Source: Amphiscolops sp. MND2022
Lineage: Eukaryota
Direction: 5' to 3'
Assembly: GCA_964187785.1 (NCBI GenBank)
Contig: OZ076409.1
Location: 8,868,001 to 8,932,000 of the forward strand
Length of the DNA stretch: 64,000 nt
Position numbers and translations under genes: made by a program. The first letter of the stretch is position 1. Every line of letters starts with the position of its first letter. Shown here piece after piece: positions 12,401 through 44,650 of the stretch. The notes beneath the pieces were generated by a model. The model was not told the origin of the DNA. It saw only the letters and a list, made by a program, of their open reading frames with translations, and did not search any database.

Positions 12401-14165
12401 CGCGTTTAGATTCAGAGGGCATTTAATGATGCTATTAGTAATCAGGTATTACCCTAAATCCAGAATGCCATCAAGGCCAGATCGGGACATAAGACACAGA
12501 AAGGATGGAACGTTCCTCCGTTATTTTATTTTAGAAACGTTGCTATTTTAATTGTTTCATTCCATTAGTCTGTTAACAGTTGTTGAATGATATTTGTGAT
12601 TCTGAAGATTTACAAACTCAAGTGAAGGCAAGTTAAAGTAACAAGCTAAGCAGTAGACTTGAACATGTTCGAGTGCGGAAACGTCCTTTCGCGGCAGCGT
12701 TACTTGCCAGCTACCTTATAGCCAATCACAGAGCGGTACAATCAGTATTATTTGAAGTGTTGTTAGAATGGGCCGAATACGGCCAATTGACTAGATAAAA
12801 GCAGTAAAAAGTAGTATTCTAGTCAAGTAGCCGGTTAGAGCCAGTTACTTCTGATCACTCAATATGTGCTACTATGTTGATTGATTTGTCATTGTAATAC
12901 CCGGAACGTTTTTTTTGTTTGTTACATTAAATAAAGGCTACTCAGCAATGATTTGTTGCTTAGAGATGCTAGCTTTTGTGTATAAATCTTTAGCTCAAGT
13001 GCCATGAAAGCCACATTCACTTTAGACTCAGCTTCTCCCAGATTAAATTCAGAACTCTGAAACATGAAAACTGGCGTAGTATTTAACCAAGCATGCACTT
13101 GTTTTGCGTTTGAAAATGTAGTTAAAAGTGTTTATACTTATTTCTAATACCATTGTGATAGTAGAGGTACTGGAATTTGTTGATGTCAAAACTTAGATGA
13201 TGTTTTCCTTACCCCCGATCAGGCCAAATTCCTAAAAGTGCTTTGATGGTGCTGACGCCGCTATTAAAGAGTTGTGTTAATGGTAGTCAACCACCTTGGT
13301 ACACCTTGATAATGTGCTACTTGAGGAATAATTTGTTGGTTGGAAAATATGTAGTTCGGGCTGATGAAATGCAATTGGAATGCTATTTTGCTTACTCAGT
13401 AATGTAAAAATGTGACTGTCATCTTCTCAGGAGTATACAAACCCCTGTTTTGCCTGAAAGTGTCACAATCCAGTTTTCCTTGCTTCGACTTAGTTTGATA
13501 TCTAAAACTGTTCATAGTTTAACACTCTCATTTAATTTTCAACAGTATAAAAACAAATATTCTCGCTCGGATTCTCTTCAAAGCCTACCACTAGAAAACA
13601 AAAGAAGGCTACAAAATCGAGAGGACTAGAAATGTTCTCAGATATAGAAAATTTAGACATAATGTTAGGTAAGGTGTTAGGTACGGAGACACAGAGAGAG
13701 AGGAAAGTGTGAATAGCAATCTCGCTAGAAGACCTGAAAGTGCCAATAGCAATATCTTTGAAAACAATGAAGAAAATATTTACATAAACCCTAGAGGTAT
13801 CGAATCTAGTAACGATGCCGGTCTCGGCCAAAATTCTACAAGCGCTAACTCTAGTGCTGAGATCAACAAACTGTCATGTGAATTGAACTCCAGGAATTCT
13901 AGGAAGATGGATGAGATGATGAACGGTGTCCGCGTTTAGATTCAGAGGGCATTTAATGATGCTATTAGTAATCAGGTATTACCCTAAATCCAGAATGCCA
14001 TCAAGGCCGGATCGGGACATAAGACACAGAAAGGATGGAACGTTCCGGCCGAGGGACCGTAAACAAATGGTGAAGTTCTGCGGTATGAAAAGGCCAGAAA
14101 TAATTCGCAAAGTGAGCTTGTCCAAAATCGCCTTAATGACGGACCCATAGACAATGCTTCTGACA
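9378..14165 (+). repeat. 3' LTR of the decayed element with an internal ~1.53-kb unit in three tandem copies (~9505-10985, ~10986-12515, ~12516-14045)
   Basis: Equivalent ORFs recur 1,530 bp apart (12002/13532, 12179/13709). Copies 2 and 3 are nearly identical; copy 1 is more diverged. Confidence 0.85.
10522..11037 (+). pseudogene. gag: LTR-borne Gag N-terminus (decayed family member); broken copies near 12052 and 13582
   Basis: MPTTRKQKKARKSR...SDIENLDIMLG matches MPSTRRQKAKEKRSR...SDIENLDVMLG of the intact Gag. Confidence 0.85.
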
Positions 14166-17100: not shown

Positions 17101-18858
17101 AACGTTAATCGAGGAGAAATCTGCAATCACTGAGGAACATGGACGTGGGTCATATTGGTTAATAAATCAGTTTGTGTCACGGTTGGGATGATAGGCTTTA
17201 CACTAACAGTTTATCAGGCTAAACGCAGAAAACCTGCTTTTGGCAGTCCAGTCTTGTCCCTGGAAAACAAGTTGGATAAAGTTTCATCATCTTAATAAAA
17301 TTGAATTTGTGGCCGGCTAAGATTCGGTTCGCCCGACAACAAAGTTTCCTAAGACTAATAAGAAGAGATGAGTATCAGTTCTGTCCAAAAAAGATACCGT
17401 GATAGTCAGCGTTATGAAGTTTGAGATGCATAGCAGTGTCGTCTGATGGGCACGCATTGCCTCCATTTTATTTCCATTTTCTCCTACTTAACTCTTCTCC
17501 TGCGACTGCACAGGCGCCTTGCCTCAATTTGTCTCAGTCCCAGCCACAGCCAGTGTTCATACTTTTCGTCGGTCTTCCACCTGCCAGATCGGCTAGCACG
17601 GTCGTCGAAATCCTATTTGCTTCCATATCTCTTCCATATTAGCTCTTTCATATCTCTCAACCTTTCATCTAGCATTGTATCGTCTACGTCTTCCACAGCG
17701 GCTGTCGCTGGGTTCCAACGCATGTTCACCTGGATTTGGTTTTTAGGTTTGACCATCAGTTCTGTCAACTGCACTTGACGTTCCGGAAATGTATCCCTAT
17801 AAAATATTCCCTGGCTGCGAACAAGCACGTCAAAGTTGTTCATCATCGCGGTACACGTCATCACATCTGGGTGGGGCGCTCAGGAAGCTTCTGCATTGAC
17901 TCCACAGTGCTTGTCCTGAGAAACACCGTTTGATTTTTGAGCCTCGAAACAAGCATTCCATCGTTCCTTGTATTTGCAGGCGTTCTATCGTCACTTGTAT
18001 TGGCAGGAAACAATATTTCGCAAGAACAACCGTTCGGATTCGATTCAACATCCAAATTTCGCTCACGTTCATGCCTCTTGTCTTTCTCATATCCCACAGT
18101 GAAGAACTGATTGACATGCGACCCACGTGGGTTCGTTTGATGAGTAGTTCAGGAGCATCTCCTAACCCTTCCACGTTTTTCAGTTTGTCTGTGATCTGCT
18201 CACTGGTGAAAGTAAGGAACACAATCGCTTTTCTGAATGAATGAACGGAGGTTTTGAAAGAATAAAACCCCGAATTGTGACCAAAATTGACAAAAAAAAC
18301 GAAACTTTCAATTTTTTTTGGTATTTACATTTTTGTCAAACTTTCGAAAGACTTCGTGGATTTAAAACTGAAAACTTTGGGCTGGAAAAAATTTTTGTCC
18401 AGTAGACTTTTGTGAAGAGAAAAAAGCATTTGTTCGAACGAAAAATTCCTGAAACTGTCCCAAAAAACCCACAAACCCTTTTTTGCCAGTTTTTGTTGTT
18501 TTTCATACAAGTTGTGCACAATTTCCCCGATTGTTCATAGGTTAGAGGGTTCAAAAAGTTTATAGATGAAAAAACAAAAAAAACCTAGCTATGCACTACA
18601 CCTCTTTGAAGAGAAAGTTTCAGTGATTTTCGTTTTCAAATCCATGTTCCTGGAGAAGTTCAATTACTTTTTATCGGTTTTGATCAAATTCTTGCAGAAC
18701 TTGTGAAATTTTTTGTATTCCGAAATATCGAAGGTATTCTCAAGCAAGTTTTTCCAACAGGTTTACACAATCGTTCATATTGAGAAAAATCAAACGACAT
18801 TTTTGTCGATTTCTTGTCCGCTTTCGATATAGTTTCGTAAATTGAAAGGCTAATCAAA

Positions 18859-19610
18859 TGTAACGACCGGCTAGCGACGCACATCTAGGAAGAGGGACAA
18901 TGCCTAGGATGCTTAAACAGGAGACCGTTGTCTTACTACATACCTAGACACTAGTTTTTGATCCCAAAATGGTCTCCAAGGGGGACTTTTCTAACGTCTA
19001 AGGAGGCTTCTCTAGTTAGAGCTCCGAAGCGACGTGCCGGCACTCTCAAAGTCCGGACACGCCCCACAAGCCTGTAAAAACGTATCCTAGGTTCCTAATG
19101 CGTTCCTGCTATCTCCTACATACTTCCGAGGTCCAAAAAGGTGTCTAACTGAAATACATTATATGAGTGAATAAGGACTAAAATGAGGACCTAGTAGGTC
19201 AAACATTATCAAAATACGCTATAAACAGTCAAAACAGGTGGGGATAGGCCCCAATAAAGTATACAGTTACATTTCGGTGGCGATCATCGGCTTCCTGCCT
19301 CTGGCATCATTCCTCATCTTCGGGGCACAATGGTCTCATTTGGCACTTTTCTGCCAAAACCCTGTCTTTTTGCTGTCAGATGGCAGAATTCCTGATTCTC
19401 ACGCCTTCTGGGTGATGACATCTCGGACATTCTCGTTCCTGGGTGGTGGGGTGGGTCTTCTGGTGGTCGTTTTGCTTTCATTTTGCTTCCTCTACGGTTT
19501 TCGTACCTGCCGGGTCGGCCATCTTGAATGTGCTTGTTTGATACCGCACATTTCGAATTTTTGATCGAAATTTTCAAAAATTTCTGCAACGCCGACTGCC
19601 GGACGTTACA
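18859..19610 (-). repeat. 3' LTR of the non-autonomous element
   Basis: TG...CA ends; matches 23492-24243 with one difference seen (ATCAAAAT vs ATCCAAAT). Confidence 0.93.
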
Positions 19611-23475: not shown

Positions 23476-23491
23476 TAAAAACTATTCCAGA

Positions 23492-24243
23492 TGTAACGAC
23501 CGGCTAGCGACGCACATCTAGGAAGAGGGACAATGCCTAGGATGCTTAAACAGGAGACCGTTGTCTTACTACATACCTAGACACTAGTTTTTGATCCCAA
23601 AATGGTCTCCAAGGGGGACTTTTCTAACGTCTAAGGAGGCTTCTCTAGTTAGAGCTCCGAAGCGACGTGCCGGCACTCTCAAAGTCCGGACACGCCCCAC
23701 AAGCCTGTAAAAACGTATCCTAGGTTCCTAATGCGTTCCTGCTATCTCCTACATACTTCCGAGGTCCAAAAAGGTGTCTAACTGAAATACATTATATGAG
23801 TGAATAAGGACTAAAATGAGGACCTAGTAGGTCAAACATTATCCAAATACGCTATAAACAGTCAAAACAGGTGGGGATAGGCCCCAATAAAGTATACAGT
23901 TACATTTCGGTGGCGATCATCGGCTTCCTGCCTCTGGCATCATTCCTCATCTTCGGGGCACAATGGTCTCATTTGGCACTTTTCTGCCAAAACCCTGTCT
24001 TTTTGCTGTCAGATGGCAGAATTCCTGATTCTCACGCCTTCTGGGTGATGACATCTCGGACATTCTCGTTCCTGGGTGGTGGGGTGGGTCTTCTGGTGGT
24101 CGTTTTGCTTTCATTTTGCTTCCTCTACGGTTTTCGTACCTGCCGGGTCGGCCATCTTGAATGTGCTTGTTTGATACCGCACATTTCGAATTTTTGATCG
24201 AAATTTTCAAAAATTTCTGCAACGCCGACTGCCGGACGTTACA
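23492..24243 (-). repeat. 5' LTR of the non-autonomous element
   Basis: 752-bp direct repeat of 18859-19610. Confidence 0.93.
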
Positions 24244-25002
24244 AAACTCCAAAAGATTTATACAGCCAAGAAGTACGCCCCAAATATGAAATTAGAAGTT
24301 TCCAATGAAGACCAATACCACAGATTGAACAAACAGTCGATAAGTTTTCATGCGTCAGATTAATCAAAATATTCAACAAAAAAGCAGTATCAAAATTGCG
24401 CTCTCTGGGAAAAGGGTCTCTTGTAAGTTGAGAGTCTCAAAAGAGCCCAAATTAGTCGGGAAAATCATAGCTTGCCATATTTTTTACAACTTCAATGTTT
24501 CTTTTTCAGAGTTATGCAGTTTCGTGGACAAACAACACCTCAGAATAACCCAAAAGTTTCGAAACGCTTTTGACGTTTTTATGCAGCTTTTCCATAAACT
24601 TGTTTAGCAATTTACTGGCGTGCAAGATTTTAGAAACACAAAAATAACTAAGTGTGGTATCCAGCAGTCGGTTTTGATAGAAATAATCACGAACTTTTGT
24701 TAGAATTGGTCTCGAAGAAAGCACCAAACCAAAAAAAATATATATACTTTTTGTGACACAATATTTCCAGTTTTCGTTCACGACTTGCTCGTAGAACAAA
24801 ACATCCATTGGCAGTTCATTGAAACAATGGCAGTTCAAATCGATGGAAAGAAAAATGGGATTAAGTCACTCGAATTTGAGAACAACGTGTCAAAGCATCC
24901 GAGGTTTCTCAGTTATCCGAAAGTCTTCCCTCGTTAGAAAATACACGAGCAAGCTCGAAACATAAATAAGTACCTATACGGGTTACGAAAAAATAATTAT
25001 AC

Positions 25003-26501
25003 TGTCGCAGGCGGCCGCCTGTGACGGAATATTATATCAAGTTGGACCCGAAGACGATGACACTAATCCCAGACCGGGTGTTTTGCCTATTTAAGAGAAA
25101 AACTCCGCAATACGTTAATTATTTAGTTAACAATCCCCTCATGCATTTTAGTTCATTCATTCTTATTCATCTCTACATGTAAATATGAAGTCTTATTAAT
25201 GTGACTCAAGGTCATTTTGACGGCATGAATAATTATATTTTGGTGCAATCTTATGTAAATTAGTTGTTACATCGCATTAATAACAATAATGTGAACTAGT
25301 ACCAAAAGGTGCAAAACGCTGTACAAGCAGTTAATTTGATTGACGTTAATAATAACAATAGAAAGCAAGATGACTATCCAAGTGAAAGGAAACGCGTTCA
25401 ACTGGTACGCTGCTGCCGTCTAGTTGACGCGTAGTCACTTCGCTTCTAACCAATCACGGCGCTACATTTAGTTATAGTTCAATGCCGTCATGCGGACGTT
25501 AGGTCCAATTAGTTAACGCATGTAGTGTTAAATCTGTAGTTGCATGAAAATCACCGTTAGCATGTACCTGTTATTAACCAGTATGTTGCTTCTATTTATA
25601 GAACCTATGACGTGTAGTCATATGTCACCTCCGTTGCTATATTTAGAATTGTGACGTAATAGTTATTTTTAATAATGATGTCATTACTATTTTTACCCAA
25701 TGACACCCTAAATATTGAGTGTCATGCTGTAGTTGCTATATATATGCAAATTTCCAGTAAGGGATTCATTCAATACGATAATCTCAATACAAACCGTTCT
25801 GTCATACACTTTCGATTCAACAATCTACTATTGAACAAAACCTTCTTTTGATATGCCTTCAACTAGAAGACAAAAGGCGAAAGAGAAACGTTCAAGGCAA
25901 TCCGACATAATGTCTGATATTGAAAATCTAGATGTGATGCTCGGAAATTATTCAAACACTGAATTTAGGGACCAAAACGCAGTAGATGAAATAGAGATTG
26001 ACCCTGAGTCAAATAGACGGCATCAAGGTTTTAGCCATGAGGAAAGTAACTATAGGTCTCTTTTGAATGCAAATTTGAGTGAGAATAGTGAAGTTACAGT
26101 AGAAACCAGTAGAGCAATCAGTTCGGAAATTTCTTCACAAATGTCAAGGAAATTGGAAGAAATGAAATCTGACCTAAATTCCCATATTATGGAGGTAATA
26201 AACTCCGCTATTGATGAGAAAATACTACCTAGCATCGAAAACGTCATAGTAAATCATGGGGAGCGCAAAAACGCTAAGTTGGACCTTCGGTCAGATGGAC
26301 GGCATCCGAGTAGAAATGTCCCTATGGACCAAACTTTGGACCTTGGGTCATATGGACGGCATAAAAATAAGTTCAGCCAACAGGTCCAGGACTCAGGAGA
26401 GAATTTTCCTAGACTAAACACAACAGTAAATAACCTTCCAAGTCATCAAATGGAATGTTTAGGAGATTCTGAACAAAGTGAAAATGAAGAAGGTTATGAC
26501 A
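25003..26501 (+). repeat. 5' LTR (1,499 bp)
   Basis: Direct repeat of 39485-40983, no differences seen. Starts TGTCGCAGG, ends TTATGACA. Confidence 0.96.
25736..25746 (+). promoter_or_regulatory. Candidate LTR TATA box (CTATATATATG), with a CCAAT box at ~25450
   Basis: TATA-like run ~110 bp upstream of the gag ATG. Position only, no transcript evidence. Confidence 0.35.
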
Positions 26502-27649
26502 TGGTGACAGGAGCCAACCTTACTCCACATGTAGTCCCTGAATTTCTGACCGGACGTCCCACGCAGTCCAGGAACAAAATTCCCCATCAACACTGCGTCA
26601 ACGATGACACATTAGATACCACTCTCCCGGCACAAATTCCCTCAAACCATATCAATGACCGGGAAATGCAGCCCCAAACACCTTTAGACCCCATAAACAG
26701 ACTTGCCGATGTCATTATGGGAATGAACAACAAATCATCAGCACAAACACTGATGGTACGACCAGTCAATACTGCCACACTCACATTTGACGGCAAATCT
26801 GAAAAATTTGAACTGTTTGAAGACCTTTTTCACACGGTGATAAAGATGCAACCCGAGATGACGGAAGCAATGAAAATTAATCACTTTCATTCACTGTTGC
26901 GCAAAAATGCCCTGCAAACCTTCCGCAACATCAGTTCAGCAAATAGACAAACCTTAGAAGACGTACTAGCTGTGTTTCGTAGGAAATATGTCAAACCTGA
27001 ATCCCAGGCAACTGCCAAACATAAATGGCACAAATTGGTATTTGACCCAAACACAATGAAATTGCCCGATTTTCTCGAGGAACTCAATCAGGGCGCCGAA
27101 AAAGCCTTTGGCGAGCACGCACAAGCCATGATTGACAGCCTGCTATACGCAAAACTCCCACCGAAACTCAAACGTTCAGTCAACATGGCGCGATTAGAGA
27201 ATGCCACCTATGAAGAAATTGTCACTCATCTCGAACGAGAACTGGAGTTGAATGGACTTGAGGAAGGCGACGACATTCCCGTTCCCACAATGTCAACAGC
27301 CCCGACAGCCACACGACCGGGTCAAGGACTCCTTTCATCAGGCATTGACCCAGGAATAACTTGCAACTACTGCAAAAAACCTGGACATGTCAAAGACGAT
27401 TGCCGAAAACTAAAACGAAAGGAAGAGCAAAAACGCAATGAAGGCTCGAGTACCAAAAAAGAGTACCCAAAGTGCCCGACTTGTGACAAAACCAATCACC
27501 CGGCGGAGAGATGTTGGAAAGGCGCTGGAGCCCACCTCAAGCCCAAAAACCTCAAATTGGATAGTCCAAAGGATGACGACACGACCAGTAGCCGTGATGA
27601 CCCTACCAATAAACCCACAACTTCTATTCTTAAAAACTCAAAAAACTAG
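25853..27649 (+). CDS. gag: Gag polyprotein (598 aa) with two CCHC zinc knuckles
   Basis: CNYCKKPGHVKDDC and CPTCDKTNHPAERC; capsid-like region FDGKSEKFELFEDLF; lies directly upstream of pol. Confidence 0.93.
   Translation: MPSTRRQKAKEKRSRQSDIMSDIENLDVMLGNYSNTEFRDQNAVDEIEIDPESNRRHQGFSHEESNYRSLLNANLSENSEVTVETSRAISSEISSQMSRKLEEMKSDLNSHIMEVINSAIDEKILPSIENVIVNHGERKNAKLDLRSDGRHPSRNVPMDQTLDLGSYGRHKNKFSQQVQDSGENFPRLNTTVNNLPSHQMECLGDSEQSENEEGYDMVTGANLTPHVVPEFLTGRPTQSRNKIPHQHCVNDDTLDTTLPAQIPSNHINDREMQPQTPLDPINRLADVIMGMNNKSSAQTLMVRPVNTATLTFDGKSEKFELFEDLFHTVIKMQPEMTEAMKINHFHSLLRKNALQTFRNISSANRQTLEDVLAVFRRKYVKPESQATAKHKWHKLVFDPNTMKLPDFLEELNQGAEKAFGEHAQAMIDSLLYAKLPPKLKRSVNMARLENATYEEIVTHLERELELNGLEEGDDIPVPTMSTAPTATRPGQGLLSSGIDPGITCNYCKKPGHVKDDCRKLKRKEEQKRNEGSSTKKEYPKCPTCDKTNHPAERCWKGAGAHLKPKNLKLDSPKDDDTTSSRDDPTNKPTTSILKNSKN
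26502..26513 (+). promoter_or_regulatory. Primer-binding site TGGTGACAGGAG (possibly tRNA-Leu), inside the gag ORF
   Basis: TGG immediately follows the LTR's terminal CA. One mismatch to the recalled tRNA-Leu(CAG) complement TGGTGTCAGGAG. Confidence 0.7.
27640..27646 (+). promoter_or_regulatory. -1 programmed ribosomal frameshift heptamer A AAA AAC
   Basis: In the gag frame directly before TAG; the pol frame is -1 and opens only at 27634. Confidence 0.85.
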
Positions 27650-27651
27650 AT

Positions 27652-30600
27652 TTGCCACGACTCCATATTAATGAAAAATTACGTGTCAGACAATATATAA
27701 TATCTGATCCTCCTACAATATATTATACTGAATATTACTCTTCAATTAAAGAAACTTCATCAGCTGACTGGCAGCAGCAGGTGAAGCATTTGCCTACTCA
27801 CTTACACAAACCGGACCTTCAGTCCGACAGACAGCACTCTAATACTACGACCATTCGCCCCCTTCACCTAATTGATAACTACAACCCATATTATCCTGAC
27901 CCGGACTTCGGATTCGACCCCTATTGGGACATTCAAATCTACAACCAACATCAGCTACATTTCTACAAAAACTTTACCAAAAACATTGCAGATATCGAAC
28001 ATGATCAACCCCATATTGATCAGATGCTGAACACAAAACTATCCTCAGCCTCTGTTGACCCCTGGCAAAATGTGTGGATTAACACCAATTCACCAATCCA
28101 GGAGGAAACAACCGAACAACTTCCACACAATGGACCTTTGGTCACATTGACGGCAACAGTGGAAGAACGCTTTGTGAATAAGCTGATCTCACGAAACGGT
28201 GAACCTGACTACGTCCCGTTGACGACCAACTTGGGACTCAAATACAAACGACGGATGCTCTACTTCCCCATGGATTTTGGCGAACTAACTTTAGATGGCC
28301 TTGTAGACACGGGAGCCCTATCTAGCGCTATCCCAGAAGCTGATCTACGTAAAATCCGATTGTTAGCCCCTCAGTCAATAATTAAAGAGGGCCCGGCACC
28401 CAACTTCCAGATTATGGTAGCCAATGGACAGCTGGAGACTCCAAAGAGCACTGTTGAACTCAAATTCGAAGTCGGGGACATCGATTTCCACGAGATCTTC
28501 ATTGTTATGGAAAAACTCACAAGTCCGTTAATTGGTCTCTCGTTCCTGCAACGGAACAATACCATACTGGACATGCGTCAAGGAGTTTTGAACTTCCCTT
28601 TCTTCTCCATGCAACTGAAAACCGCTGACCACAAGTACACTAACGTCATGGAACCTATCTGTGCGCGGGAGGATATAACTATCCCCCCCAACGACAGACA
28701 TATGGTTTCCATGTTCTCACAACTCTATGACGACACAAACGTCACTGGAATTCTTCAACCGAGCAATGACCTTGCAGAAGATGGTGATATAACCTTCTGC
28801 GCTGCTCTAGTCACACTGACCCAAGGTCAGGTATCAATTCATGTCAACAACTTCACTGACCAACCGTTCACCCTCAAAAGAGGTGCTCACATTGCCAATT
28901 TCTCTGTCCTCACACCAGAGCAGATGAAATACGTCAAACCCATTGATCCTGTGACCACTTGGCACCTTTTGAAGGATAACCCGGAAAATGCTGCCTATTA
29001 TGCCAGTAGCCTGATCAAATCCCCGAAAACTAACGATGATAGTGAGAACTACTGGTTCCCTACTCCAGAAGAACCAGGAGATCCTCAAACTCATACACCC
29101 ATACAACAAAGAATCCTTAGGGAACTACGAAATCTCCAAGATTTAGAGAAACTCAACCCTCAGGATGACCCTGAATCGCGGAAACAATTTCTTGCTAACT
29201 TTGACTGGACAGACTCTACGCTGAATCCAGCCGAAATTGCCCAAATTGAAGAATTACTTGTTGAATTTCACGACATTTTTGCACGACACCGCTTTGACAT
29301 AGGTATGAACGAAGACTTCAAGGTCACTTTGACCCCTAAAGATGATTCCCCTGCCTATAGTCAAAGCTTACCTACTCCTATCAACCTCAAAGAAGATATC
29401 CTTGTAGAACTAGCACTACTACATCGATATGGGATTATAACAACTCTCCCATTTTCCAAATATGCAAGTACCATCTTTGCCCAGAAAAAACCTAACGGCA
29501 AACTTCGACTCCTGGTTGACCTCCGAAAGATCAACAACCTGATTTCTGACGATTACATCAACAACAACCATCCTGTCAGCACACTAACGGATGCTGCGCA
29601 GCACATGGCAGGTAAACGATTATTTTGCAAACTTGATTGTTCTCAAGCATACCACTGCCTTCAGATGGCTGACCAGAGGTCAATCGAGATGCTGGCATTC
29701 AATTTTGCCAGCAGAACATTTGCCTATCGCCGACTTGCCCAAGGTCTAAGCAGAGCGCTGTCCGCATTTTCGAGCTTTATGCGCGAATACCTGGATAAAG
29801 TGATAAAAGCTGACCAATGTGCTCAGTACGTAGATGATATTGGGATAGCTGCAAATGACGCTACCCAGCTCATCAACAACCTTCGAGCAACGTTCCAGTG
29901 CATCAGGACCGCTGGCCTCAAACTAACGATGCACAAATGCCATTTTGGCGCCAAGGAAATCGACTTCCTGGGACGTACCATCACTCCTGATGGGGTGCGG
30001 CCACAACGACCCAGGGTCCAGAATTTCTTGGAAAAGACCAAATTCCCTAAATCCAAGAAAGCTCTTCAACGATACTTGGGATTCCTGAACTACTACCGCA
30101 ACTACATTCCTAGACTCTCAGAAAAACTCACACCGTTCTTCAAGCTATTGAAAAGTGATGCCAAAGTCATGGTGACACCCGATCTGTTAGAAAAATTCAC
30201 CGAGATCAACAAAGCTCTTGACCGATGTTGTGAACTGGCGCTCAAACAACCTCTACCCGACAAACAGATAGCCCTGATGACAGACGCTAGTTTTTCGGCA
30301 GCAGGTTATGCAGTTCTCATCGAGGACGATCCGATGGAAAAATATACTTCGACGCGAAAAGCCTTCGCACCTGTAGCATATGGATCCAAGACCTTTAGTC
30401 CAGCCCAACTGAAGATGTCCATTTATGCCAAAGAATTCTTAGCAATATTCTTTGCATTTAAAGAATTTGGCCATATCTTCTGGGGGACCCCGAAACCGGT
30501 GATAATACTAACAGACAACAAGTCAGTCACTCGCTTTTTTCAAACAAAAATCATTCCACCCACATTGTGGAACGCGTGTGACTACGTTATGCAATTCAGT

Positions 30601-32829
30601 TTCACAATAGCCCATATACCTGGCAAAAACAATACTGCCGCTGACTACTTGTCACGTCTAGAAATCTGTCCCAAAGAAAAACTTATACTCCGGATACGAG
30701 AAGATATTTCCACCACACCAATCGAACTCAACGTCCAATCAGCGGGAGTTACTGAAGAGGAACAGATCTTCTATACGGACGATGATGAAGAAACAGAAGA
30801 ACAAATCTGGAAACGCAAACAAGACGCCAGGTCAAACCCAACGAATCAACCTCCTGATATTTTGTTAGATCATCTTAGCACTCATAACAATACACAATTC
30901 CAAACTCAAAATATACAAAAACTGGCAAAACCAACCGCCATGGCTATAGAACAACAGAACGACCTTATCCTGCATCAATTACGACTCAAACTGCAAAAAG
31001 AAGAATACTCTGAAACTATCTTACAGCAAGATTCGCGCTACCGACATTACTGCCGTCAAATTGACCGTCTGTCCGTACATGATGACATCATTTTCAGAGA
31101 CTACTACGATGAAACAGGCAGTGTCCAATTCCGCCAAGCATTATTACCAAAACATCTAGTCACAGAATTACTTCAATCACTACATGGTTCCGCGAACAAA
31201 CACCCGGGAATCTCAAAAATGCTGCATGAAATTCGACAAAAATATTACTATCCTGGAATCGCAAAAATTGTCAAAAAGTGGGTCCAAGGATGTGAAATTT
31301 GTATAAAAGACAAAAGAATCAACAATGCATACATAACACCTGAATTACTCAATTTACCTGAATGGGATCTTGGTCCAGAAGATGCCTTACAAATTGACAT
31401 TTTGCCCAACTTACCCCCAAGTGGAGGATACGAAAATGTCATAACTGCTCTGGACGTGTTTTCGAGATATCTTTTTGCCTACCCAGTAACGGACGCTTCG
31501 GCCGTCAATACGGCAAAGGTCATTATTGATATCATGACAAAACATTCCTATTTGCCGACTACGCTAATCACCGACAAAGGCACTGCCTTTACGTCCAAAC
31601 TACTAGAAGAAATTACCAAAATCTTGGGGATTCACCTTCGGTGCGCGACCACAAAGCATCCTCAGACGATAGGCAAACTAGAACGCACTCATGCCAGCCT
31701 TAAGGGCAACCTTAAAATGGCATCAGGCGAATACAGGCGTCAATGGCACAAATATCTCCCATTGGCCGTCCTTAATTATAACACAACCTATCATTCAAGT
31801 CTTGGATGCGAACCCACCCGAATTTTTCACGGAAGAGTACCCTATAATATCCTAGACCATCGGTTAGGATTAAACCCTAACCCAAAGATCACTCCAACGA
31901 CTGATTTTGCTGAAGAATTTCAAAGACGCACGCAAATATTAATCGATCAAACAAAGAAAAATATCATGCAATCATATTTAAAGTACAAGGAATATTATGA
32001 CCGAAAGGCTAAAGCAGCTCCTCTACAACAAGGAGATTTTTGCTTCATTTTACAACCTCTAGCAGACCATCAAGGCTCTAAAATTCCTTTTCGTGAATTT
32101 CGTTGGATCGGACCGTACGTCATTGAAAAAGTTTTACCTAACGACAACTATATTGTTCGCAAACTTAGTACTAACAAAACGCAGATATTACACCGAATAC
32201 GCCTTAGAAAATACACTCCAACTACTACCCCACAAGACATTCGTCCCGAAGGAAATTTACAAGCAGACGATGAAATTATTATTCCACAAGATGATCTGTA
32301 CATCATTTCATGGGAAACCAATTTCGACGATTTCCCTCCTAATTCTGAAAATCGGACTGTTACTAATGAACTCCCTACCAATTCCGATGAACAGGATGCC
32401 ATAATCACAGATTTGGACCTACGGTCCACGCGACAGCAAACAAATACTGACGCCGCTCACGCTGATGATACTGATAGTGACTCACGTTCAAACGAAATAA
32501 ACGAAGCGGACCTTCGGTCCGCGCGACGGCAATCAAATACTGAGGCTGATAATACGGAACAGTACTCAAGAAATGCAAACAATGAAGACCGTCAGTCCGC
32601 TAGACGGCAACAAAGTACCGAATTTGAAAACGATGAATTGACAAATCAGGACCTACCTAGAGATGAAAATTCAGAATTTTCAACTTCTGGGGGGAACGAT
32701 ACAACCGTGCCCGATGTATTAACTGAAGAAACTGATGATTGTGTTGTAGAAAATGAAAGTCCTAGGGGAGGGAGATATAACTTACGCCCCAATCCTACCC
32801 CCAACTTTACTGACGAATACAGATACTAG
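27652..32829 (+). CDS. pol: Pol polyprotein: aspartic protease, dUTPase-like insert, RT, RNase H, integrase with GPY/F (probably made as Gag-Pol by -1 frameshift)
   Basis: LVDTGA (PR); LRLLVDLRKIN and QYVDDI (RT); LMTDAS (RH); H..H..CEIC plus QIDIL/TDKG/KLER (IN); WIGPY. Confidence 0.96.
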   Translation: MPRLHINEKLRVRQYIISDPPTIYYTEYYSSIKETSSADWQQQVKHLPTHLHKPDLQSDRQHSNTTTIRPLHLIDNYNPYYPDPDFGFDPYWDIQIYNQHQLHFYKNFTKNIADIEHDQPHIDQMLNTKLSSASVDPWQNVWINTNSPIQEETTEQLPHNGPLVTLTATVEERFVNKLISRNGEPDYVPLTTNLGLKYKRRMLYFPMDFGELTLDGLVDTGALSSAIPEADLRKIRLLAPQSIIKEGPAPNFQIMVANGQLETPKSTVELKFEVGDIDFHEIFIVMEKLTSPLIGLSFLQRNNTILDMRQGVLNFPFFSMQLKTADHKYTNVMEPICAREDITIPPNDRHMVSMFSQLYDDTNVTGILQPSNDLAEDGDITFCAALVTLTQGQVSIHVNNFTDQPFTLKRGAHIANFSVLTPEQMKYVKPIDPVTTWHLLKDNPENAAYYASSLIKSPKTNDDSENYWFPTPEEPGDPQTHTPIQQRILRELRNLQDLEKLNPQDDPESRKQFLANFDWTDSTLNPAEIAQIEELLVEFHDIFARHRFDIGMNEDFKVTLTPKDDSPAYSQSLPTPINLKEDILVELALLHRYGIITTLPFSKYASTIFAQKKPNGKLRLLVDLRKINNLISDDYINNNHPVSTLTDAAQHMAGKRLFCKLDCSQAYHCLQMADQRSIEMLAFNFASRTFAYRRLAQGLSRALSAFSSFMREYLDKVIKADQCAQYVDDIGIAANDATQLINNLRATFQCIRTAGLKLTMHKCHFGAKEIDFLGRTITPDGVRPQRPRVQNFLEKTKFPKSKKALQRYLGFLNYYRNYIPRLSEKLTPFFKLLKSDAKVMVTPDLLEKFTEINKALDRCCELALKQPLPDKQIALMTDASFSAAGYAVLIEDDPMEKYTSTRKAFAPVAYGSKTFSPAQLKMSIYAKEFLAIFFAFKEFGHIFWGTPKPVIILTDNKSVTRFFQTKIIPPTLWNACDYVMQFSFTIAHIPGKNNTAADYLSRLEICPKEKLILRIREDISTTPIELNVQSAGVTEEEQIFYTDDDEETEEQIWKRKQDARSNPTNQPPDILLDHLSTHNNTQFQTQNIQKLAKPTAMAIEQQNDLILHQLRLKLQKEEYSETILQQDSRYRHYCRQIDRLSVHDDIIFRDYYDETGSVQFRQALLPKHLVTELLQSLHGSANKHPGISKMLHEIRQKYYYPGIAKIVKKWVQGCEICIKDKRINNAYITPELLNLPEWDLGPEDALQIDILPNLPPSGGYENVITALDVFSRYLFAYPVTDASAVNTAKVIIDIMTKHSYLPTTLITDKGTAFTSKLLEEITKILGIHLRCATTKHPQTIGKLERTHASLKGNLKMASGEYRRQWHKYLPLAVLNYNTTYHSSLGCEPTRIFHGRVPYNILDHRLGLNPNPKITPTTDFAEEFQRRTQILIDQTKKNIMQSYLKYKEYYDRKAKAAPLQQGDFCFILQPLADHQGSKIPFREFRWIGPYVIEKVLPNDNYIVRKLSTNKTQILHRIRLRKYTPTTTPQDIRPEGNLQADDEIIIPQDDLYIISWETNFDDFPPNSENRTVTNELPTNSDEQDAIITDLDLRSTRQQTNTDAAHADDTDSDSRSNEINEADLRSARRQSNTEADNTEQYSRNANNEDRQSARRQQSTEFENDELTNQDLPRDENSEFSTSGGNDTTVPDVLTEETDDCVVENESPRGGRYNLRPNPTPNFTDEYRY

Positions 32830-33047
32830 TTAGAATATGTAAATTCACTGGCCCGACTCAACATCTTTTGACCCTACAATTATCTTTTTATGGGCCTCGA
32901 CTGACTTGTAGTCCACAATAACAGATCAAACACAGGCATCATAATGACACAACTGTACAAACAAAGAACTAAAATAAACAAACCCAAAACTGACAACAAA
33001 TGAAAGATACATAAATACAACTAAAAACAAATGTACATATAGTACAA

Positions 33048-36000
33048 TTAGGAGTCTTTAGCAAACGAAGGGGATGGCAATTCGCTATCAGACTGCCGTT
33101 TCACTGGCGAGTTCTTAGCACTAGGGGGAGGGAGACTTTTCGAACCTTTGTCGCCTTTCAGTCCTTTGAATCTCAACTTTCGGGTATCTCCCTTCTTCTT
33201 CATTGAAACAGGTTTCAGAGTAGAAAGAATCTTAGCACGATCGAACAGATCCATCCCGTCCCAAGGACTATAAGTATCCGAAAATGCTGAATCTCCAAAT
33301 GTAGGCTCGAACGCCAAGAACTCGGCAATAGAAGAATCCGTGGTGAGGGCATCAATGCTCCGCCCAACATTAATAAAATAAGACTGAACAGGAAGGATGG
33401 TGTCTATCAACTTGCTCTTAGGGTCATCAGTCCGAACAGAGCCAAATTTCACTGCAGGCATGGCATTAAAATTCTGATCCAAACATAAGCAGCATAGCCT
33501 GAAAATCCGAGCTAGGTGCGGGCGCGATTGCAGGGTGACATGGCCTGAAATGAAGGAAACTGCATCAGTGATGATGATTCTAGGCTGGTCCAAATCAGGG
33601 AACTCTTTGCGCAGTTCGTCAAGAAAGGATAAATATTCTTCGGTGCAGATTGACTCATCATCGGCCTGGTAATATCCGCGCAGTTGGAAGCTGCGAAACA
33701 GCTGCTTGAAACAATACAGAGCCTGACTGAGCGGAGATCGGAACATGATGTCAAGGTCGAAAGCTCCCATCCCTTTCACAATATCTGATGTTAACTGTAG
33801 GTTGCTCTGGACCGCGTGAAACAAGTAGGCAACATAGCTTCGGCCAAGTCGCCCAAACTCCTCCTTACTCTCCTTCACAAGCTTGGGCAAATTAGCACGA
33901 TTGATCTTTTTATCACTAAGCTCCTTTTCAGCCTTGATTTTGCAAGCGGTGTTGAGGCGTTGGTCTAATTTGGAGCGAGCAATGAAGTCTGGGACAGCTA
34001 GAGCCCTGGCGTCAGAAACCGATATACCCAGGATCCCAGAGAGATCTGTCTCTTGCGGCAAGCTCTTTGCCTTGATACAACGCCTCCCAAGTTTGAACAA
34101 GTATTGGCACAGTTGTCTATAGATATGGAAGCCATGATCCCGTCTTTCCACTAGATGCGGCACGAAACTAGTGGTGTCTAAACAAAGCAGCCTAAGACAT
34201 GCAAGAAAAACCACACCACAAAGGGTCCTATAGACGTTGTGTTTCATACTAACAATCTCTAACAAGGCGGTAGAAGAGTTCAAGACGACAGAGAAATAGC
34301 TCATCCTGGATCATCGCACGTTCTAGGTTCTGGGGCTGTAACAACAATTCAATATCAAAATAATGTAAGGTGGACTGAAGGTCATCGTGACGGCATCAAC
34401 TCACCTGCTTTCTGACGCCCATCATCTCATGTGGAGGGGCATGTGCATTCAGGTACTCTGTCACTTTGGTCCAGTTTGTGAGCAGTTCCTGACATAAGGT
34501 TGGGAGTGTAGCCAACTCTATTCGGCAAGTTCGTACTGCCTGAAAACATTCGACCAGTTGTACCGTATAAAAGATTTCCACCATGAAGTGAAAAGATAGA
34601 ACCCTACCTCCGCAAGTACAGGAGTCATCAATGTCCAGTCACAGTCCAGACATCCACCCAGGAAGACTACCAGATATTTGAGGACTGAGTGGAAGTCAAT
34701 GCGACCGAAAACACTATAGCTCTCCTTGTGCATGAGACGCGCAATTGAGAAGTCCTCGAATCTGAGGGGACGTTGAAGCCCATATTCAAAGTACGGAGAG
34801 TTGTCGACTAATTGAATTGTCTCCAAGGAACACCCAGAACAACTGACAATGTTTGGGCTGGTAGATAAAGCGGCCATGACGTCAGCAATCAAGCACAACT
34901 CTGCCGATGATTGTCCCAAGACTCTTCCAGTTCGCTTCAAGAAGACTCGGCACAGCTCATCTTTCCTCCAAAAACGGATGAAGACGAGCAGAAAGACACC
35001 CTGTTTTACAAACTCCAGGGAGTATTCACCAGCAGCCACAACGTGTTCAGCAACGTCGTGGATAACACGGACGAATAAGTGATGGAAGAGAGCCTAGAAC
35101 AACAACATTAGGGTCATACCTAGCCAAATAGAAGACTACACTCTTAACATGGTCTTAGGGTCAATTTGACCAGAGGGAATTACGTACCGATAGCCGTTCT
35201 TTGCTCCAGTTGAAGTCGGTGAAGAGAGATTGGTGATTCACTACGACGCCCACGTCACGCCAGAAATTCCTCAACATGCCAATGTCACCGTAGCTTCTCA
35301 GGTAATTTCCAAGCACTGAAACTTGGACTCTCGCGCGGTTTTCGGACGATGACGCCATGTAGTCAGTCCCTTGGAGGTATTCATCGTAGAAGGGCAATTT
35401 CTCGCCGATATCAACTAGCTCTTCTTCAATGAATTTAGGCAGCTCTAGCTGAAGTTCATAAGGAGTAAGCCGTCTACCATCTCTTCCACGAACGTGATGT
35501 TTTATGGTTTTCGTCACTGGATCTTCTACTGCCAAGTGTTCATACCGCCACCTTTGATCCTTCCGGAGGTGACGCTCAGTGGCATGATGACGAAGGATCT
35601 CACGCGCCCCGCGACCATAAATGGAGATATTGCCCTTGCAGATCTGGCAATAAAACTTGTATGGATTCCAACGAGGATCAACCGGACCTGATACGAAGGT
35701 TTTGGTCCACTCCATTCCTTTGAAGTACGCCTCCTTCATGATTTTGCATCCACGAGGTACCCGATGTCTGCTCTCCCCAGTTGTGCGTACAGTAGGCTTA
35801 CGCTGTTTTTTACGACTTCCAGATTTTGACTTCTCAGCAATTGCCTCAGCTTTGAGTCCAGCTAAAGTTTGTGCTCCTGGGCTATCCACCTGATTAATGG
35901 CCTCATGTGACATAGGGTCAACCCGACTGCAACCTGGAGGTCCGACTGGAGGGGGAGTAAAAGGGTGACTCTCCAGATCAGAATGCTCGTAAACGTATCC

Positions 36001-37260
36001 GATACTGGCAAAGTCATCTCCGCTCCTGAGTGCGCCACTGGTGTCGCTCTCATTCCCGGTCAAGAATCCGGATTGGGAACCAAGACTGCTACTTTGCTCC
36101 AATGGTCTTTGCGCTTTTGGAATCTCGCGGGGAGTGCTGCCAGGAGTTCCAAGACTAAGTTTACTAGCCTGTTGTATCAGGTTCTCCATAGCCTTGAGTG
36201 ACGACTTAACAGCTTCGTCAGCAACTACTTTCAAGACTTGGCAAACTTGGCCTTCGTTTAGGGCCAAGGTCGAATGCCCAGCCGGCAGGGTCACTGGGGT
36301 AGCTTCTTCGAAAAATTCTTTTATCAAGGCTCGACTGCTTGCAGACAATTGAGCAACTCGGGGTGCCACCTCAGGAAAGTCTACTGAAGTATTGCTAGCC
36401 GTTTCACAAACTCTAAACGTGTGTGAATTAGCAGGAGCGAACAAAGCGTCAGCTACCGTGGACCCTACTGCGCCCTCAGAATCTTGGCAGGTGTCGCTGG
36501 ACTTTTGATTTGATGGACCTTGTCGCGCTTTGTTTTTGAAATTGGAAACTCCAAAATCGTCAGACGACGGATCATCATCTTCAGACAATGAGGGAAGCCC
36601 GGTCTCATCTGCTGCAACAGATAATTCTTCTCTTCCACTACCCACCTTTCCACACAGTTTCTGGATTTTTGCTTCCGGGGGGCCGTATCTCGACTTCAGA
36701 CTGCTCTTCAAGGGAAACTTTGGAGGATCGAGGAATGCAACCTCAGAGACAGAGTCAGTGTCCATTTCATCCTGACTTTGGAGACCTTGGGTTGGGGCCA
36801 ATTCCATAGCGAAGCTCTCACTGGTTTTCACAATTTTGCCGCCGTCTTGACTACCGGTCCCAGTTTCTGGGACGCACCCCAGTTGCTCCCATTTTCGAGC
36901 GATGTAGGCTCCGCAGCTTTCGTCAGTGCTACTGCTTTCAACAAGTAGAGTTTCAGTCGTGGTAGGTGGGGTGACGGCGGTAGTGGACAAGACCACAGGA
37001 ACTTCAGGTAACGAACCCAGACCAGAACGAGGTTCACTCTCCCGATGCGCATCCTCAGAAACAACTTCCATCGCACCTTGAGCTGGAACACTTATAGTCG
37101 TTTGTGCAGAACTGTCAGTGTTTGACGCAGCCGTCACGAAAGAATCAGGACTCTCCGGTTTCTCTTCATCAGCACCACGTTTGGGTGGTTGGCCATTTGA
37201 CTCATTTCCTAAACGGAATGAAATAAATAATCGCGGTTCACTTCCTGAATATGAATCCAT
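33048..37260 (-). CDS. Spliced antisense accessory gene, exons 37260-35188, 35093-34608, 34539-34405, 34335-34254, 34177-33048 (~1,301 aa): long disordered N-terminus, C2H2/BED-like zinc finger, hAT-transposase-like C-terminal half
   Basis: Four GT-AG introns (94, 68, 69, 76 nt) join the ORFs in frame; total 3,906 nt. Zinc finger FYCQICKGNISIYGRGAREILRHHATERH. Intron positions are conserved in the 2986-7230 copy. Confidence 0.8.
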
Positions 37261-38040
37261 CTAGCCGCGCTTCATAAATATTTCCGGAAATACTTTTGAC
37301 ACAATGTTCATGCTGACAGCAAACATTTCACGATGGAGGAAGTAACTTAGTTAGAATTATGAGCCCTGATCAAGCCTAATTTTAACACATTCAAAAGAAC
37401 CAACCTGATGTTGAATCCATATTCGATCAACAGAATTGATGTGACCAATTGTTGTACGCTGTTGAAGATGAATTTTGTTTGACTTCGCAATGTAATCCCA
37501 GATGTTTATTAGTAAAATAGACGAACAGGAATTTGCCAAATTCTTTCACACGGAATTTGTGTCTGGAGAGCCGTGTAGTGAAGTAAGATCCTCTGGATGA
37601 CAAATAATGAAGAAAACTGGAATTTGAGGAAATCAATTCAAATTAAAGCAAGCAAAATTTGTGAATTTATGTTGGGGAAAGGTTAGGAAAAGGCGAAATT
37701 AAGACTGAATCAATTTGTTGCTCAAGGTCAGAGAGACTATCCTGATTACTAGGTAATACAGTCTAGCTCAAGTGATACTACAAGAGGAAACAATTGATGA
37801 AGGCAATGGTCTTTAACGCAAAAGCACAGAGCTGTGGACGTAATGTCAACCTGACGGCAATGTATTACTAGTTCACAGTCAAATAATATTCAACCAGTAC
37901 TAACGAATTGGACGATGAGTCATCTTGACGGCACAACGTTACTTGTTACCAAACGTACTTTATTTCACTCCCTCTACTCAACGACTACTCTTTTGACTAA
38001 TTACTACCTCCTACCAATAATTTAGAGTCTCGGACTTCTT

Positions 38041-38099
38041 ATCATTATTATTATTGATATTATTATTATTATTAATATTATTATTACTATCATTATTAC
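38041..38099. repeat. Imperfect (ATT)n microsatellite in the intergenic region between the divergent antisense gene and ORF3
   Basis: atcattattattattgatattattattattattaatattattattactatcattattac. Confidence 0.8.
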
Positions 38100-38772
38100 T
38101 TGGATGTCGTGGCTACATGTAAGACTTTCCTTTATGTTTCCATCTTCTCCTTTCCTTTAGTCATGCTCTTTATTCACAGTACATGGTATGGAACCTGCCA
38201 GTGAAATATTCATGGACTTATCTATTTGTTTCATTTCATCTCATTATCTCCCATGAAGAGATATCAAATTACTTATTTCATTTCACCCCATCATTATTTG
38301 GAAAATGCATCAAATTGCTTATTTTATTCTCCATCCATGAAAATTTTCGATAAATTTTACCAACTACTCTTATATCATCTGATTGGCTCTCATCTTTGCT
38401 GCCGTCAGAAGGACCGCCAGTCTTTCAAGTTGTTTGTTGACAGAGAATTAAGAAGAACAACACTTGAATTAGTAGGCAACTCCTTTGAAGGAGTAAGCAA
38501 ATCCTCTACAAGTGGCAATTAAAATTTTGATATTATAACAACAAAACAGGCTTTGGCGGTCTCAATGAAAGCAAGAAACCTAAATATGGAAAGTTTGGGA
38601 GAATATAGCGGGAATGGTCCCTTACAATTACCCCCGCCAAATACGAAGGCTGACCTAAGGTCAACTGGACGGCATAATTTCATTCATCGCCCTACAATTT
38701 CAAAACCAGTAGACTGCTTCTGAACTGCTCAAAATTGCACGAAAACTGTTTCTATCACGTTATTCACGGGAA

Positions 38773-39576
38773 ATGTCTTTGCAGTTTAACACTGAGGGTA
38801 TAAATGGACCATTAGTGAGTCTTTCCTATCGATCATCTGACGAAGAAATGGAAGTAGATTCAGTCTACTCAGTACACGATAGCGACGATGACGACATTCA
38901 AGTGATAGCCTGTTACTCCGAAAATCAGGAATTTCCACCACAGCTGACGGCAGGTAGAGCTATGACTACGGACTTGTCTGACTGCCTCGGTTATTTAAGC
39001 TTACCGGAAACCACTTCGGAAAGCTACTTTACCGAACCGACGGAAGAGCTCATCGATTGGTTCGTCGGAAGTCCACCGTCAACCTACTCCGGGGTACAGC
39101 CGCAACAACATCCTATAGCTCAATGTAGTCAAATTGACCCATTGCCTTACTCGCCATTGTCGCCGCCACTGATCGATCAATTCCCCAACTACGCACCAAT
39201 GGTCGACGATCATGAGGTCCAAGCAGAGCCGCAATGGGCTAGGAACCAACACATCACTGGCCTGGGCATCAGCGCAAGCGGACTATGCGGACAGCCCAAT
39301 GACGTACTCTACGGTGGTTGTGTTGTCTGCGGGAAATCGTTCCAGGCAATAAAGGAAGAGGTGACACTCGGCTTTCTAGAGAGTACTCATGTTCCTGGAG
39401 AGACGTACGAACAACGACAAGCGAGACGGCGAGCTTTCGAAGCTGGAATGAAAGCCGGATCTTTCATTGTCATCCCCCGGGGAGTGTCGCAGGCGGCCGC
39501 CTGTGACGGAATATTATATCAAGTTGGACCCGAAGACGATGACACTAATCCCAGACCGGGTGTTTTGCCTATTTAA
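38773..39576 (+). CDS. Accessory ORF3 (267 aa; acidic N-terminus, CxxC motif), unknown function; overlaps the PPT and the first 92 bp of the 3' LTR
   Basis: Open frame whose C-terminal ~90 aa are conserved in the diverged relative (8993-9472). Confidence 0.75.
   Translation: MSLQFNTEGINGPLVSLSYRSSDEEMEVDSVYSVHDSDDDDIQVIACYSENQEFPPQLTAGRAMTTDLSDCLGYLSLPETTSESYFTEPTEELIDWFVGSPPSTYSGVQPQQHPIAQCSQIDPLPYSPLSPPLIDQFPNYAPMVDDHEVQAEPQWARNQHITGLGISASGLCGQPNDVLYGGCVVCGKSFQAIKEEVTLGFLESTHVPGETYEQRQARRRAFEAGMKAGSFIVIPRGVSQAAACDGILYQVGPEDDDTNPRPGVLPI
39474..39484 (+). promoter_or_regulatory. Short PPT-like plus-strand primer site CCCCCGGGGAG
   Basis: Abuts the TG of the 3' LTR; only six purines. Confidence 0.55.
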
Positions 39577-40983
39577 GAGAAAAACTCCGCAATACGTTAA
39601 TTATTTAGTTAACAATCCCCTCATGCATTTTAGTTCATTCATTCTTATTCATCTCTACATGTAAATATGAAGTCTTATTAATGTGACTCAAGGTCATTTT
39701 GACGGCATGAATAATTATATTTTGGTGCAATCTTATGTAAATTAGTTGTTACATCGCATTAATAACAATAATGTGAACTAGTACCAAAAGGTGCAAAACG
39801 CTGTACAAGCAGTTAATTTGATTGACGTTAATAATAACAATAGAAAGCAAGATGACTATCCAAGTGAAAGGAAACGCGTTCAACTGGTACGCTGCTGCCG
39901 TCTAGTTGACGCGTAGTCACTTCGCTTCTAACCAATCACGGCGCTACATTTAGTTATAGTTCAATGCCGTCATGCGGACGTTAGGTCCAATTAGTTAACG
40001 CATGTAGTGTTAAATCTGTAGTTGCATGAAAATCACCGTTAGCATGTACCTGTTATTAACCAGTATGTTGCTTCTATTTATAGAACCTATGACGTGTAGT
40101 CATATGTCACCTCCGTTGCTATATTTAGAATTGTGACGTAATAGTTATTTTTAATAATGATGTCATTACTATTTTTACCCAATGACACCCTAAATATTGA
40201 GTGTCATGCTGTAGTTGCTATATATATGCAAATTTCCAGTAAGGGATTCATTCAATACGATAATCTCAATACAAACCGTTCTGTCATACACTTTCGATTC
40301 AACAATCTACTATTGAACAAAACCTTCTTTTGATATGCCTTCAACTAGAAGACAAAAGGCGAAAGAGAAACGTTCAAGGCAATCCGACATAATGTCTGAT
40401 ATTGAAAATCTAGATGTGATGCTCGGAAATTATTCAAACACTGAATTTAGGGACCAAAACGCAGTAGATGAAATAGAGATTGACCCTGAGTCAAATAGAC
40501 GGCATCAAGGTTTTAGCCATGAGGAAAGTAACTATAGGTCTCTTTTGAATGCAAATTTGAGTGAGAATAGTGAAGTTACAGTAGAAACCAGTAGAGCAAT
40601 CAGTTCGGAAATTTCTTCACAAATGTCAAGGAAATTGGAAGAAATGAAATCTGACCTAAATTCCCATATTATGGAGGTAATAAACTCCGCTATTGATGAG
40701 AAAATACTACCTAGCATCGAAAACGTCATAGTAAATCATGGGGAGCGCAAAAACGCTAAGTTGGACCTTCGGTCAGATGGACGGCATCCGAGTAGAAATG
40801 TCCCTATGGACCAAACTTTGGACCTTGGGTCATATGGACGGCATAAAAATAAGTTCAGCCAACAGGTCCAGGACTCAGGAGAGAATTTTCCTAGACTAAA
40901 CACAACAGTAAATAACCTTCCAAGTCATCAAATGGAATGTTTAGGAGATTCTGAACAAAGTGAAAATGAAGAAGGTTATGACA
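39485..40983 (+). repeat. 3' LTR (1,499 bp)
   Basis: Direct repeat of 25003-26501, followed by the TSD TATAC. Confidence 0.96.
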
Positions 40984-41042: not shown

Positions 41043-41072
41043 AAACCTTTTTTCCGACAGTTTGATCTATTA

Positions 41073-44530: not shown

Positions 44531-44650
44531 GTTAATAATACCAGAAAGCATGTACCAGAAAGAAGTGCTCTAGTTTACGAAGTCATCTTACTACTCTATC
44601 GATTGACGGAATTGGAAAATTGATCGAGACAACAATTCTTTGAAGCTTCA

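Follow-up and report, generated by a model that had tools for sequence, protein, structure and literature searches.

Protein-coding sequence within the long terminal repeat of an animal Ty3/gypsy element

Long terminal repeats (LTRs) are usually viewed as non-coding control units. The locus described here, in which a gag reading frame begins deep inside such a repeat, raises the question of whether an LTR can also carry a conserved part of a structural protein, and whether the LTR end and the adjoining primer-binding site can be read as codons in addition to their roles in replication. The analysis covered a window of 64 kb (the whole stretch of DNA under study), together with related proteins drawn from sequence databases.

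Limits of the element and its reading frames

The window contains a young, Ty3/gypsy-type insertion of approximately 16 kb (25003-40983), with the following features:

24998-25002, plus strand: target-site duplication TATAC, left
25003-26501, plus strand: 5' LTR, 1,499 bp, TG...CA ends
25853-27649, plus strand: gag ORF, 598 aa, with a DUF1759 capsid-like region at 312-442 and zinc knuckles near the C-terminus
25853-26500, plus strand: LTR-encoded Gag codons 1-216 (basic block 1-33, linker, predicted long helix 68-141, linker)
26501-26503, plus strand: in-frame ATG, Met217, formed by the last A of the LTR and the TG of the primer site
26502-26513, plus strand: primer-binding site, translated M-V-T-G
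27634-32829, plus strand: pol frame (protease, dUTPase, reverse transcriptase, RNase H, integrase)
27640-27646, plus strand: A-AAA-AAC heptamer directly ahead of the gag stop, a candidate site for a -1 shift to pol
33048-34304, minus strand: antisense ORF, 418 aa, no Pfam match, homologue in family 2
35161-37260, minus strand: antisense ORF, 699 aa, with a zinc-finger-like stretch, homologue in family 2
38773-39576, plus strand: ORF C, 267 aa, which spans the purine tract and takes in the first 92 nt of the 3' LTR (30 codons)
39485-40983, plus strand: 3' LTR, with a 6-base purine run just before it
40335-41042, plus strand: 3' LTR copy of Gag 1-216 extended into the flank, 235 aa
40984-40988, plus strand: target-site duplication TATAC, right

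The two LTRs are each 1,499 bp in length, carry TG...CA ends and are 100% identical, and the TATAC duplication abuts both ends of the element; from that identity, and from the presence of TATAC on either side, it follows that the insertion is recent and that the limits of the repeats are certain. The initial annotation had placed the gag ATG 850 bp into a 1,499-bp LTR and had assigned 216 codons to that repeat, and the identical LTRs and their TATAC borders bear out both statements: translation from the ATG at 25853 would leave codons 1-216 of 598 (approximately one-third of Gag, an overlap of 649 nt) wholly inside the LTR. Its further claim, that the LTR end and primer site are read in frame as Y-D-M-V-T-G and thereby create an ATG at 26501-26503, was likewise confirmed, as the TGG-start primer-binding site directly adjoins the 5' LTR with no spacer and the frame across the two reads ...EGYDMVTGA. 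The LTR-borne gag frame contains no stop codon, the remaining five frames contain 7-31 stops, and base shuffles of the same stretch were never stop-free (0 of 20,000). The presence of coding sequence within the LTR, and of dual-use sequence held in a fixed frame at the LTR end and primer site, is supported. The primer tRNA may be a leucine tRNA; a search of the 64-kb window found no tRNA gene.

In Pfam searches of Gag, DUF1759 scored above the cut-off and zf-CCHC below it, and weak matches to Retrotrans_gag and Ty3_capsid were found in Gag relatives. A single-sequence model of the capsid fold was poor (pLDDT 45), a fold search with the full Gag model returned no match at E <= 0.001, and a Gag profile compared against the PDB matched nucleocapsid knuckles only.

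The pol frame sits in the -1 frame relative to gag, and the heptamer listed above is a candidate site for the corresponding -1 shift, its function being predicted from sequence. From the gag stop to the first pol ATG there are approximately 130 pol-frame codons (27650-28023), a long stretch ahead of the protease to which no domain is assigned. The reverse transcriptase and RNase H region matched Ty3-G Gag-Pol as the best of 22 solved-structure matches (E 1.6e-44), and a dUTPase was found between protease and reverse transcriptase (28657-28902, plus strand; pol residues 212-293, counting from 28024; E 1e-6, above the cut-off), a domain that to our knowledge is uncommon in retrotransposons. The direct LTRs with TG...CA ends and a target-site duplication, as well as the order of protease, reverse transcriptase, RNase H, then integrase, are those of Ty3/gypsy elements; the integrase does not precede the reverse transcriptase, as it would in a member of Ty1/copia.

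At the opposite end of the element, the purine tract before the 3' LTR comprises only 6 purines and is located inside ORF C, and the peptide VSQAAACDG, which spans the LTR start within that frame, recurs in the corresponding frame (9032-9472, plus strand) of family 2, a decayed relative in the same window. Open frames thus extend over the primer site, the purine tract and the two ends of the LTR.

Antisense frames are found between pol and ORF C at 33048-34304, 34518-35093 and 35161-37260 (minus strand), with family-2 homologues at 3181-4164 and 5403-5811; they may be exons of a single gene. For the zinc-finger-like stretch, the Atlas offered only weak leads, at 0.87-0.88, towards GTF2IRD2-like and BED-finger clusters, hinting that it may represent a captured transposase-like gene.

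Elsewhere, the window contains a 2,005-bp tandem duplication (56256-60264, 99.8%); a 756-bp direct repeat (18855-19610 and 23488-24243, 4.6 kb apart, 99.7%) that possibly represents the LTRs of another young element; dispersed short, MITE-like repeats in both orientations (41070-45250, 49615-49800, 56480-59430 and 61856-62180); and a frame with two calcium-binding EGF repeats (60361-60714, plus strand), probably a host exon, which suggests that the host is an animal.

The junction and the LTR-borne protein among relatives

A search with full Gag identified 3,036 relatives among 8,000 candidates scored, and the sequence DMVTGA is present in 109 of the 120 that were listed. A similar search with the N-terminus beginning at 10522, which belongs to family 2, identified 240 longer relatives, with the junction present in 114 of 120 listed and its D located at residue 195 in 94 of those 114; in the two subfamilies the junction is placed after about 190-217 residues. 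These family tests employ database proteins that are gene calls, among which frameshifted copies cannot give full-length matches, and such searches favour open frames because those copies drop out.

An additional test was conducted with protein sequence only, in which the frames of 3' and solo LTRs should follow Gag to the D of the junction and then enter unrelated sequence, and in which the residue after D should come from an A-first codon, that A being the last of the LTR. A search with residues 1-216 returned 533 matches, and the 120 listed comprise 76 short relatives that diverge at the junction, 16 that enter the primer site and 28 that stop earlier. The 76 junction-ending relatives display D in all cases but one (H); the next residue is I, M, T, K, N, S or R in every one of them, against a background of 43% (~2e-28); and their tails are unrelated to one another, one similar pair excepted. 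Among cluster representatives, five of six further junction-ending cases fit the same description and one does not. A stop in similarity at the junction, followed by a residue from an A-first codon, is what 3' and solo LTRs that are read into flanking DNA should give, and an LTR ending at the gag junction is a family-wide trait.

Fourteen chosen proteins, with capsid identity that falls from 96% to 48%, carry D/H/N/Y-M-V-T-G at 115-224, behind a K/R-rich tip; for the distant members among them, the motif alone points to a probable LTR origin of the N-terminus. Searches for related DNA loci found none in viral contigs or metagenome contigs, and a search of genome contigs returned one 32-residue match, to a Rhizobium contig, which was at chance level and was disregarded.

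Several relatives display unusual junctions. In P0329, the residues past MVTG are like those that the complement of a tRNA T-arm would specify, as if extra primer-tRNA sequence beyond the primer site had been copied into DNA, and this tail is consistent with a tRNA primer and approximately 12 paired bases. Three others (P0365, P0387 and P0445) contain several tandem junction-like motifs (x-M-V-x-G), which suggests that the LTR end, together with the primer site, was duplicated repeatedly within gag.

Further remnants of the Gag N-terminus are found within the window itself:

9378-14165, plus strand: 3' LTR of the decayed family 2, internally triplicated (unit ~1,530 bp, single LTR ~1,730 bp), with a gag start at 10522
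51711-52277, minus strand: decayed Gag N-terminus of family 3, probably a solo LTR

The claim that the N-terminus is LTR-borne in both of these copies holds for the one at 10522, which lies in a 3' LTR, and is presumptive for the one at 52277 (minus strand), the limits of which are not fixed. The 10522 start is located 1,144 bp past an LTR start (9378) that is near-identical to the main LTR start; a decayed pol and counterparts of each of the three extra ORFs lie upstream of it. The corresponding LTR end (14165) reads ...CTGACA, shares its four terminal bases with the main LTR and is not followed by a primer site; judged by length, about 195 codons are LTR-borne, a value that fits the database relatives of family 2. 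The 10522 ORF is broken off at approximately codon 155 by a tandem junction, and the later two tandem units have no start codon and carry stops and shifts. Three tandem units of approximately 1,530 bp from this 3' LTR occupy 9507-14046, the later ones matching the first at 87-93%, and each bears a remnant of the Gag N-terminus.

In the 52277 copy, the motif is visible only across frameshifts and stops; the copy matches residues 7-176 of P0363 with 49% identity and ends near the junction of that protein (189), with no primer site after it. A fourth and more distant remnant (47676-47873, minus strand), which the initial annotation did not include, matches the N-terminal part of the Gag P0412 and is not followed by capsid sequence. 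A search for a clean target duplication around the remnants at 52277 and 47.8 kb gave unconvincing candidates only.

The pattern of conservation across the LTR-borne region was examined by comparing the two subfamilies, for which 167 of 240 proteins were kept (those with the start motif, the junction and at least 520 aa; 73 were dropped) and sampled 30 by 30. Identity between subfamilies is 60% over residues 1-33, 13% over 34-65, 32% over 66-135 and 14% over 136-215, and past the junction it is 68% (216-240) and reaches 81% in the capsid; the junction Met is located at 190-218 in the 167 kept proteins. In the conserved blocks of the main copy and the 10522 copy, identity at the three codon positions is 0.53, 0.63 and 0.38, and different codons are used for 24 of 42 shared residues. 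The initial annotation had regarded this N-terminus as conserved coding sequence, and that view is upheld by third positions that are the least conserved and by a frame that is open across relatives; the dN/dS check that it had proposed gave 0.18 (31 codons) and 0.32 (45 codons), values that come from one pair of copies within the window, 76 codons in all, with dS near saturation. The non-coding 850 bases upstream in the LTR align between the same two copies only in short pieces. Among the decayed family-2 tandem units, dN/dS is 0.89-1.01, as would be anticipated for dead copies, and they lend the case for constraint no support. Collectively, codon usage and sequence divergence support protein-type constraint upon two conserved blocks of the LTR-borne part of Gag.

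Structure prediction with AlphaFold (62 sequences) produced a basic helix (residues 5-29, pLDDT 62-69), disordered linkers and a long helix (68-141, pLDDT 78-95 over 81-130) within a whole model that was poor (pTM 0.19); a prediction of a three-copy complex of residues 64-142 scored 0.19 versus a mark of 0.32. A search of the ESM Atlas with residues 1-216 gave no usable match (best 0.75). The helix of P0447, a distant relative, gave a below-cut-off match to a dimerisation domain (E 2e-4), which serves as a lead only.

Promoter, translation start and alternative readings

The LTR contains the following candidate signals:

25737-25745, plus strand: candidate TATA box from a motif scan, unique in the LTR, with the gag ATG 116 nt further downstream
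25766-25771, plus strand: initiator-like TCATTC, ~30 nt past the TATA box, one of five TCAKTY matches in the LTR
26197-26202, plus strand: AATAAA, the sole one in the LTR, inside gag codons, a putative poly(A) signal

The TCAKTY consensus was taken from the available portion of a survey of LTR structure (PMC3601003). No ATG is found between the initiator match and 25853, such that the gag ATG is the first after the TATA box; the single TATA box, the initiator match and the lack of an earlier ATG together point to 25853 as the first AUG of an RNA that would begin at approximately 25768. TATA-like sites are found in the other families at -149 (unit 2 of family 2) and at -134 to -130 (family 3), the family-2 site at the matching place is degenerate in two of three units, and the nearest upstream ATG in those families is 137-173 nt away. 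The AATAAA at 26197-26202, which had been put forward as an RNA-processing signal, is the only canonical hexamer in this LTR, yet the LTR-borne parts of the two other families in the window lack a counterpart, and it was rejected as a conserved signal.

These features would fit a promoter that lies mid-way in a long LTR, the downstream ~730 nt of which (R and U5) would serve as both mRNA leader and coding sequence. Starting near 25768, the RNA would possess an AUG-free leader of 85 nt; translation from 25853 would then yield the 598-residue Gag, and a -1 shift would yield Gag-Pol. Residues 1-216 (basic tip, long helix and flexible linkers) would occupy a matrix-like position ahead of the capsid. 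The same RNA would be primed by tRNA at 26502, approximately 735 nt from its presumed start, and minus-strand strong-stop DNA of approximately 730 nt, 649 of them coding, would be copied before the first jump; since strong-stop DNA would copy the gag codons, both LTRs would keep them.

The suggestion of a second translation start at 26501 leads to an alternative in which Gag is made in two forms: initiation at 25853 would give the long form and initiation at 26501 a short form with capsid only, the latter by way of a second RNA (through an internal start or splicing). Met217 has G at both -3 and +4 and is nearly invariant, the M-V-T-G frame is used in 14 of 14 examined proteins (capsid identity to 48%) even though a second frame is also stop-free, the junction Met is the first residue in 8 of the 27 representatives that carry the motif, and the available text on Ty1 describes p22 as made from an internal RNA (PMC13709905). 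However, the Met is forced wherever a CA end meets the TGG of a primer site in that frame, and a single frame can persist by descent; its conservation was consequently rejected as evidence of a start. Moreover, 20 ATGs (8 in frame) precede 26501 on the presumed RNA and rule out simple scanning, and the LTR contains no second TATA box. Gene callers choose the junction ATG when upstream sequence is broken, as illustrated by P0433, which comes from a long-form family, so that the eight representatives fit either broken upstream parts or genuine short forms. The second start was not borne out, and production of two forms is considered unlikely.

Far less probable is that the LTR-borne frame is untranslated and kept for reasons of DNA or RNA, with Gag beginning at the junction. 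While the linkers are merely 13-14% identical, as such a reading would allow, third codon positions are the least conserved, dN/dS is 0.18-0.32, the frame is open despite saturated linkers and length changes, and the presumed 5' 793 nt of the RNA folds no better than its shuffles (z -1.35). An accidental duplication of the gag start in one copy, beside a short true LTR, has nothing but the unusual layout in its favour and can be regarded as already refuted, since TG...CA ends and the target duplication enclose the full 1,499 bp, the primer site adjoins that repeat, and its junction is also where 76 independent relatives stop. A mid-LTR promoter and an LTR-encoded Gag start in an animal Ty3/gypsy lineage, as read from motifs and sequence comparison, are considered probable.

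Implications and comparison with known systems

If the promoter and Gag start are located as proposed, then promoter, leader and 190-217 codons would travel with every LTR, 3' and solo copies included, and the lineage would leave likely promoter-plus-ORF cassettes across its host genome. Annotation tools that seek gag past the primer site would lose one-third of Gag and call solo LTRs inert. A more speculative and rather doubtful extension is that LTR-only copies represent ready-made genes for a Gag N-terminal module that lacks a capsid and is fused to flanking sequence, which might act on assembly or seed host genes, in an element where all four replication signals (both LTR ends, primer site and purine tract) would be protein-coding. 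Ty1 p22 is a model for control by a Gag fragment in the accessible part of one account (PMC13709905), and LTR-only copies would, were this extension true, exert copy-number control as its N-terminal mirror. The element would offer a clean natural example of integrase ends and priming sites that double as codons, as well as a testable path towards control by truncated Gag or towards new chimeric genes.

Among yeast elements, Ty1 presumably has about 13 LTR-borne codons, few in comparison with the 216 of the present element, which form conserved protein blocks. The two are alike in that the Saccharomyces cerevisiae Ty1 primer site is also within the GAG frame (RNA nt 94-104, in the available text of PMC4974528). 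A closer counterpart is Candida albicans Tca5, a Ty5-like member of Ty1/copia, whose gag frame also begins deep in the 5' LTR with the primer site after that repeat: according to the accessible portion of a review, its ORF starts 382 bp into a 685-bp LTR, an overlap of ~300 nt described there as unusually deep, with the real start undetermined (PMC4139406). Tca5 is a low-copy fungal element with one ORF and an initiator-Met primer, and the portion of the review available holds no test of conservation (PMC4139406), whereas the present element displays Ty3/gypsy order, an animal host, 649 nt of overlap and thousands of relatives that share its layout. The description of an overlap of ~650 nt as exceptional is accordingly to be qualified: it is about twice that of Tca5, but an inset of ~300 nt was already on record (PMC4139406, available portion).

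With respect to other Ty3/gypsy elements, the bdelloid Juno, Vesta and TelKA also carry a dUTPase between protease and reverse transcriptase and extra ORFs after pol, and the available part of their description mentions no gag start in the LTR (PMC5408684); the likeness is one of features, and the extra ORFs of the present element differ in matching no Pfam family and in that two are antisense. Caenorhabditis elegans Cer1 is likewise a Ty3/gypsy element, its Gag has a long N-terminus and an accessory frame precedes its 3' LTR, but in the accessible text its LTRs of 491-492 bp are followed by a 5' UTR, and it was rejected as a precedent because coding starts outside the LTR (PMC10309623). The available portion of the LTR-structure survey mentions neither 'ORF' nor 'open reading frame' (PMC3601003), and a literature search, in which subscription journals and repeat libraries were mostly not covered, found no Ty3/gypsy gag that starts 600 nt inside an LTR.

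The gag frame that runs from inside the 5' LTR through the primer site is the layout of Ty1 and Tca5, and the element described here is a Ty3/gypsy one from outside their family that works like them in possessing a coding LTR. Yeasts already provide the principle; in the literature searched, the novelty lies in its scale, its animal Ty3/gypsy setting and the family-wide evidence for it.
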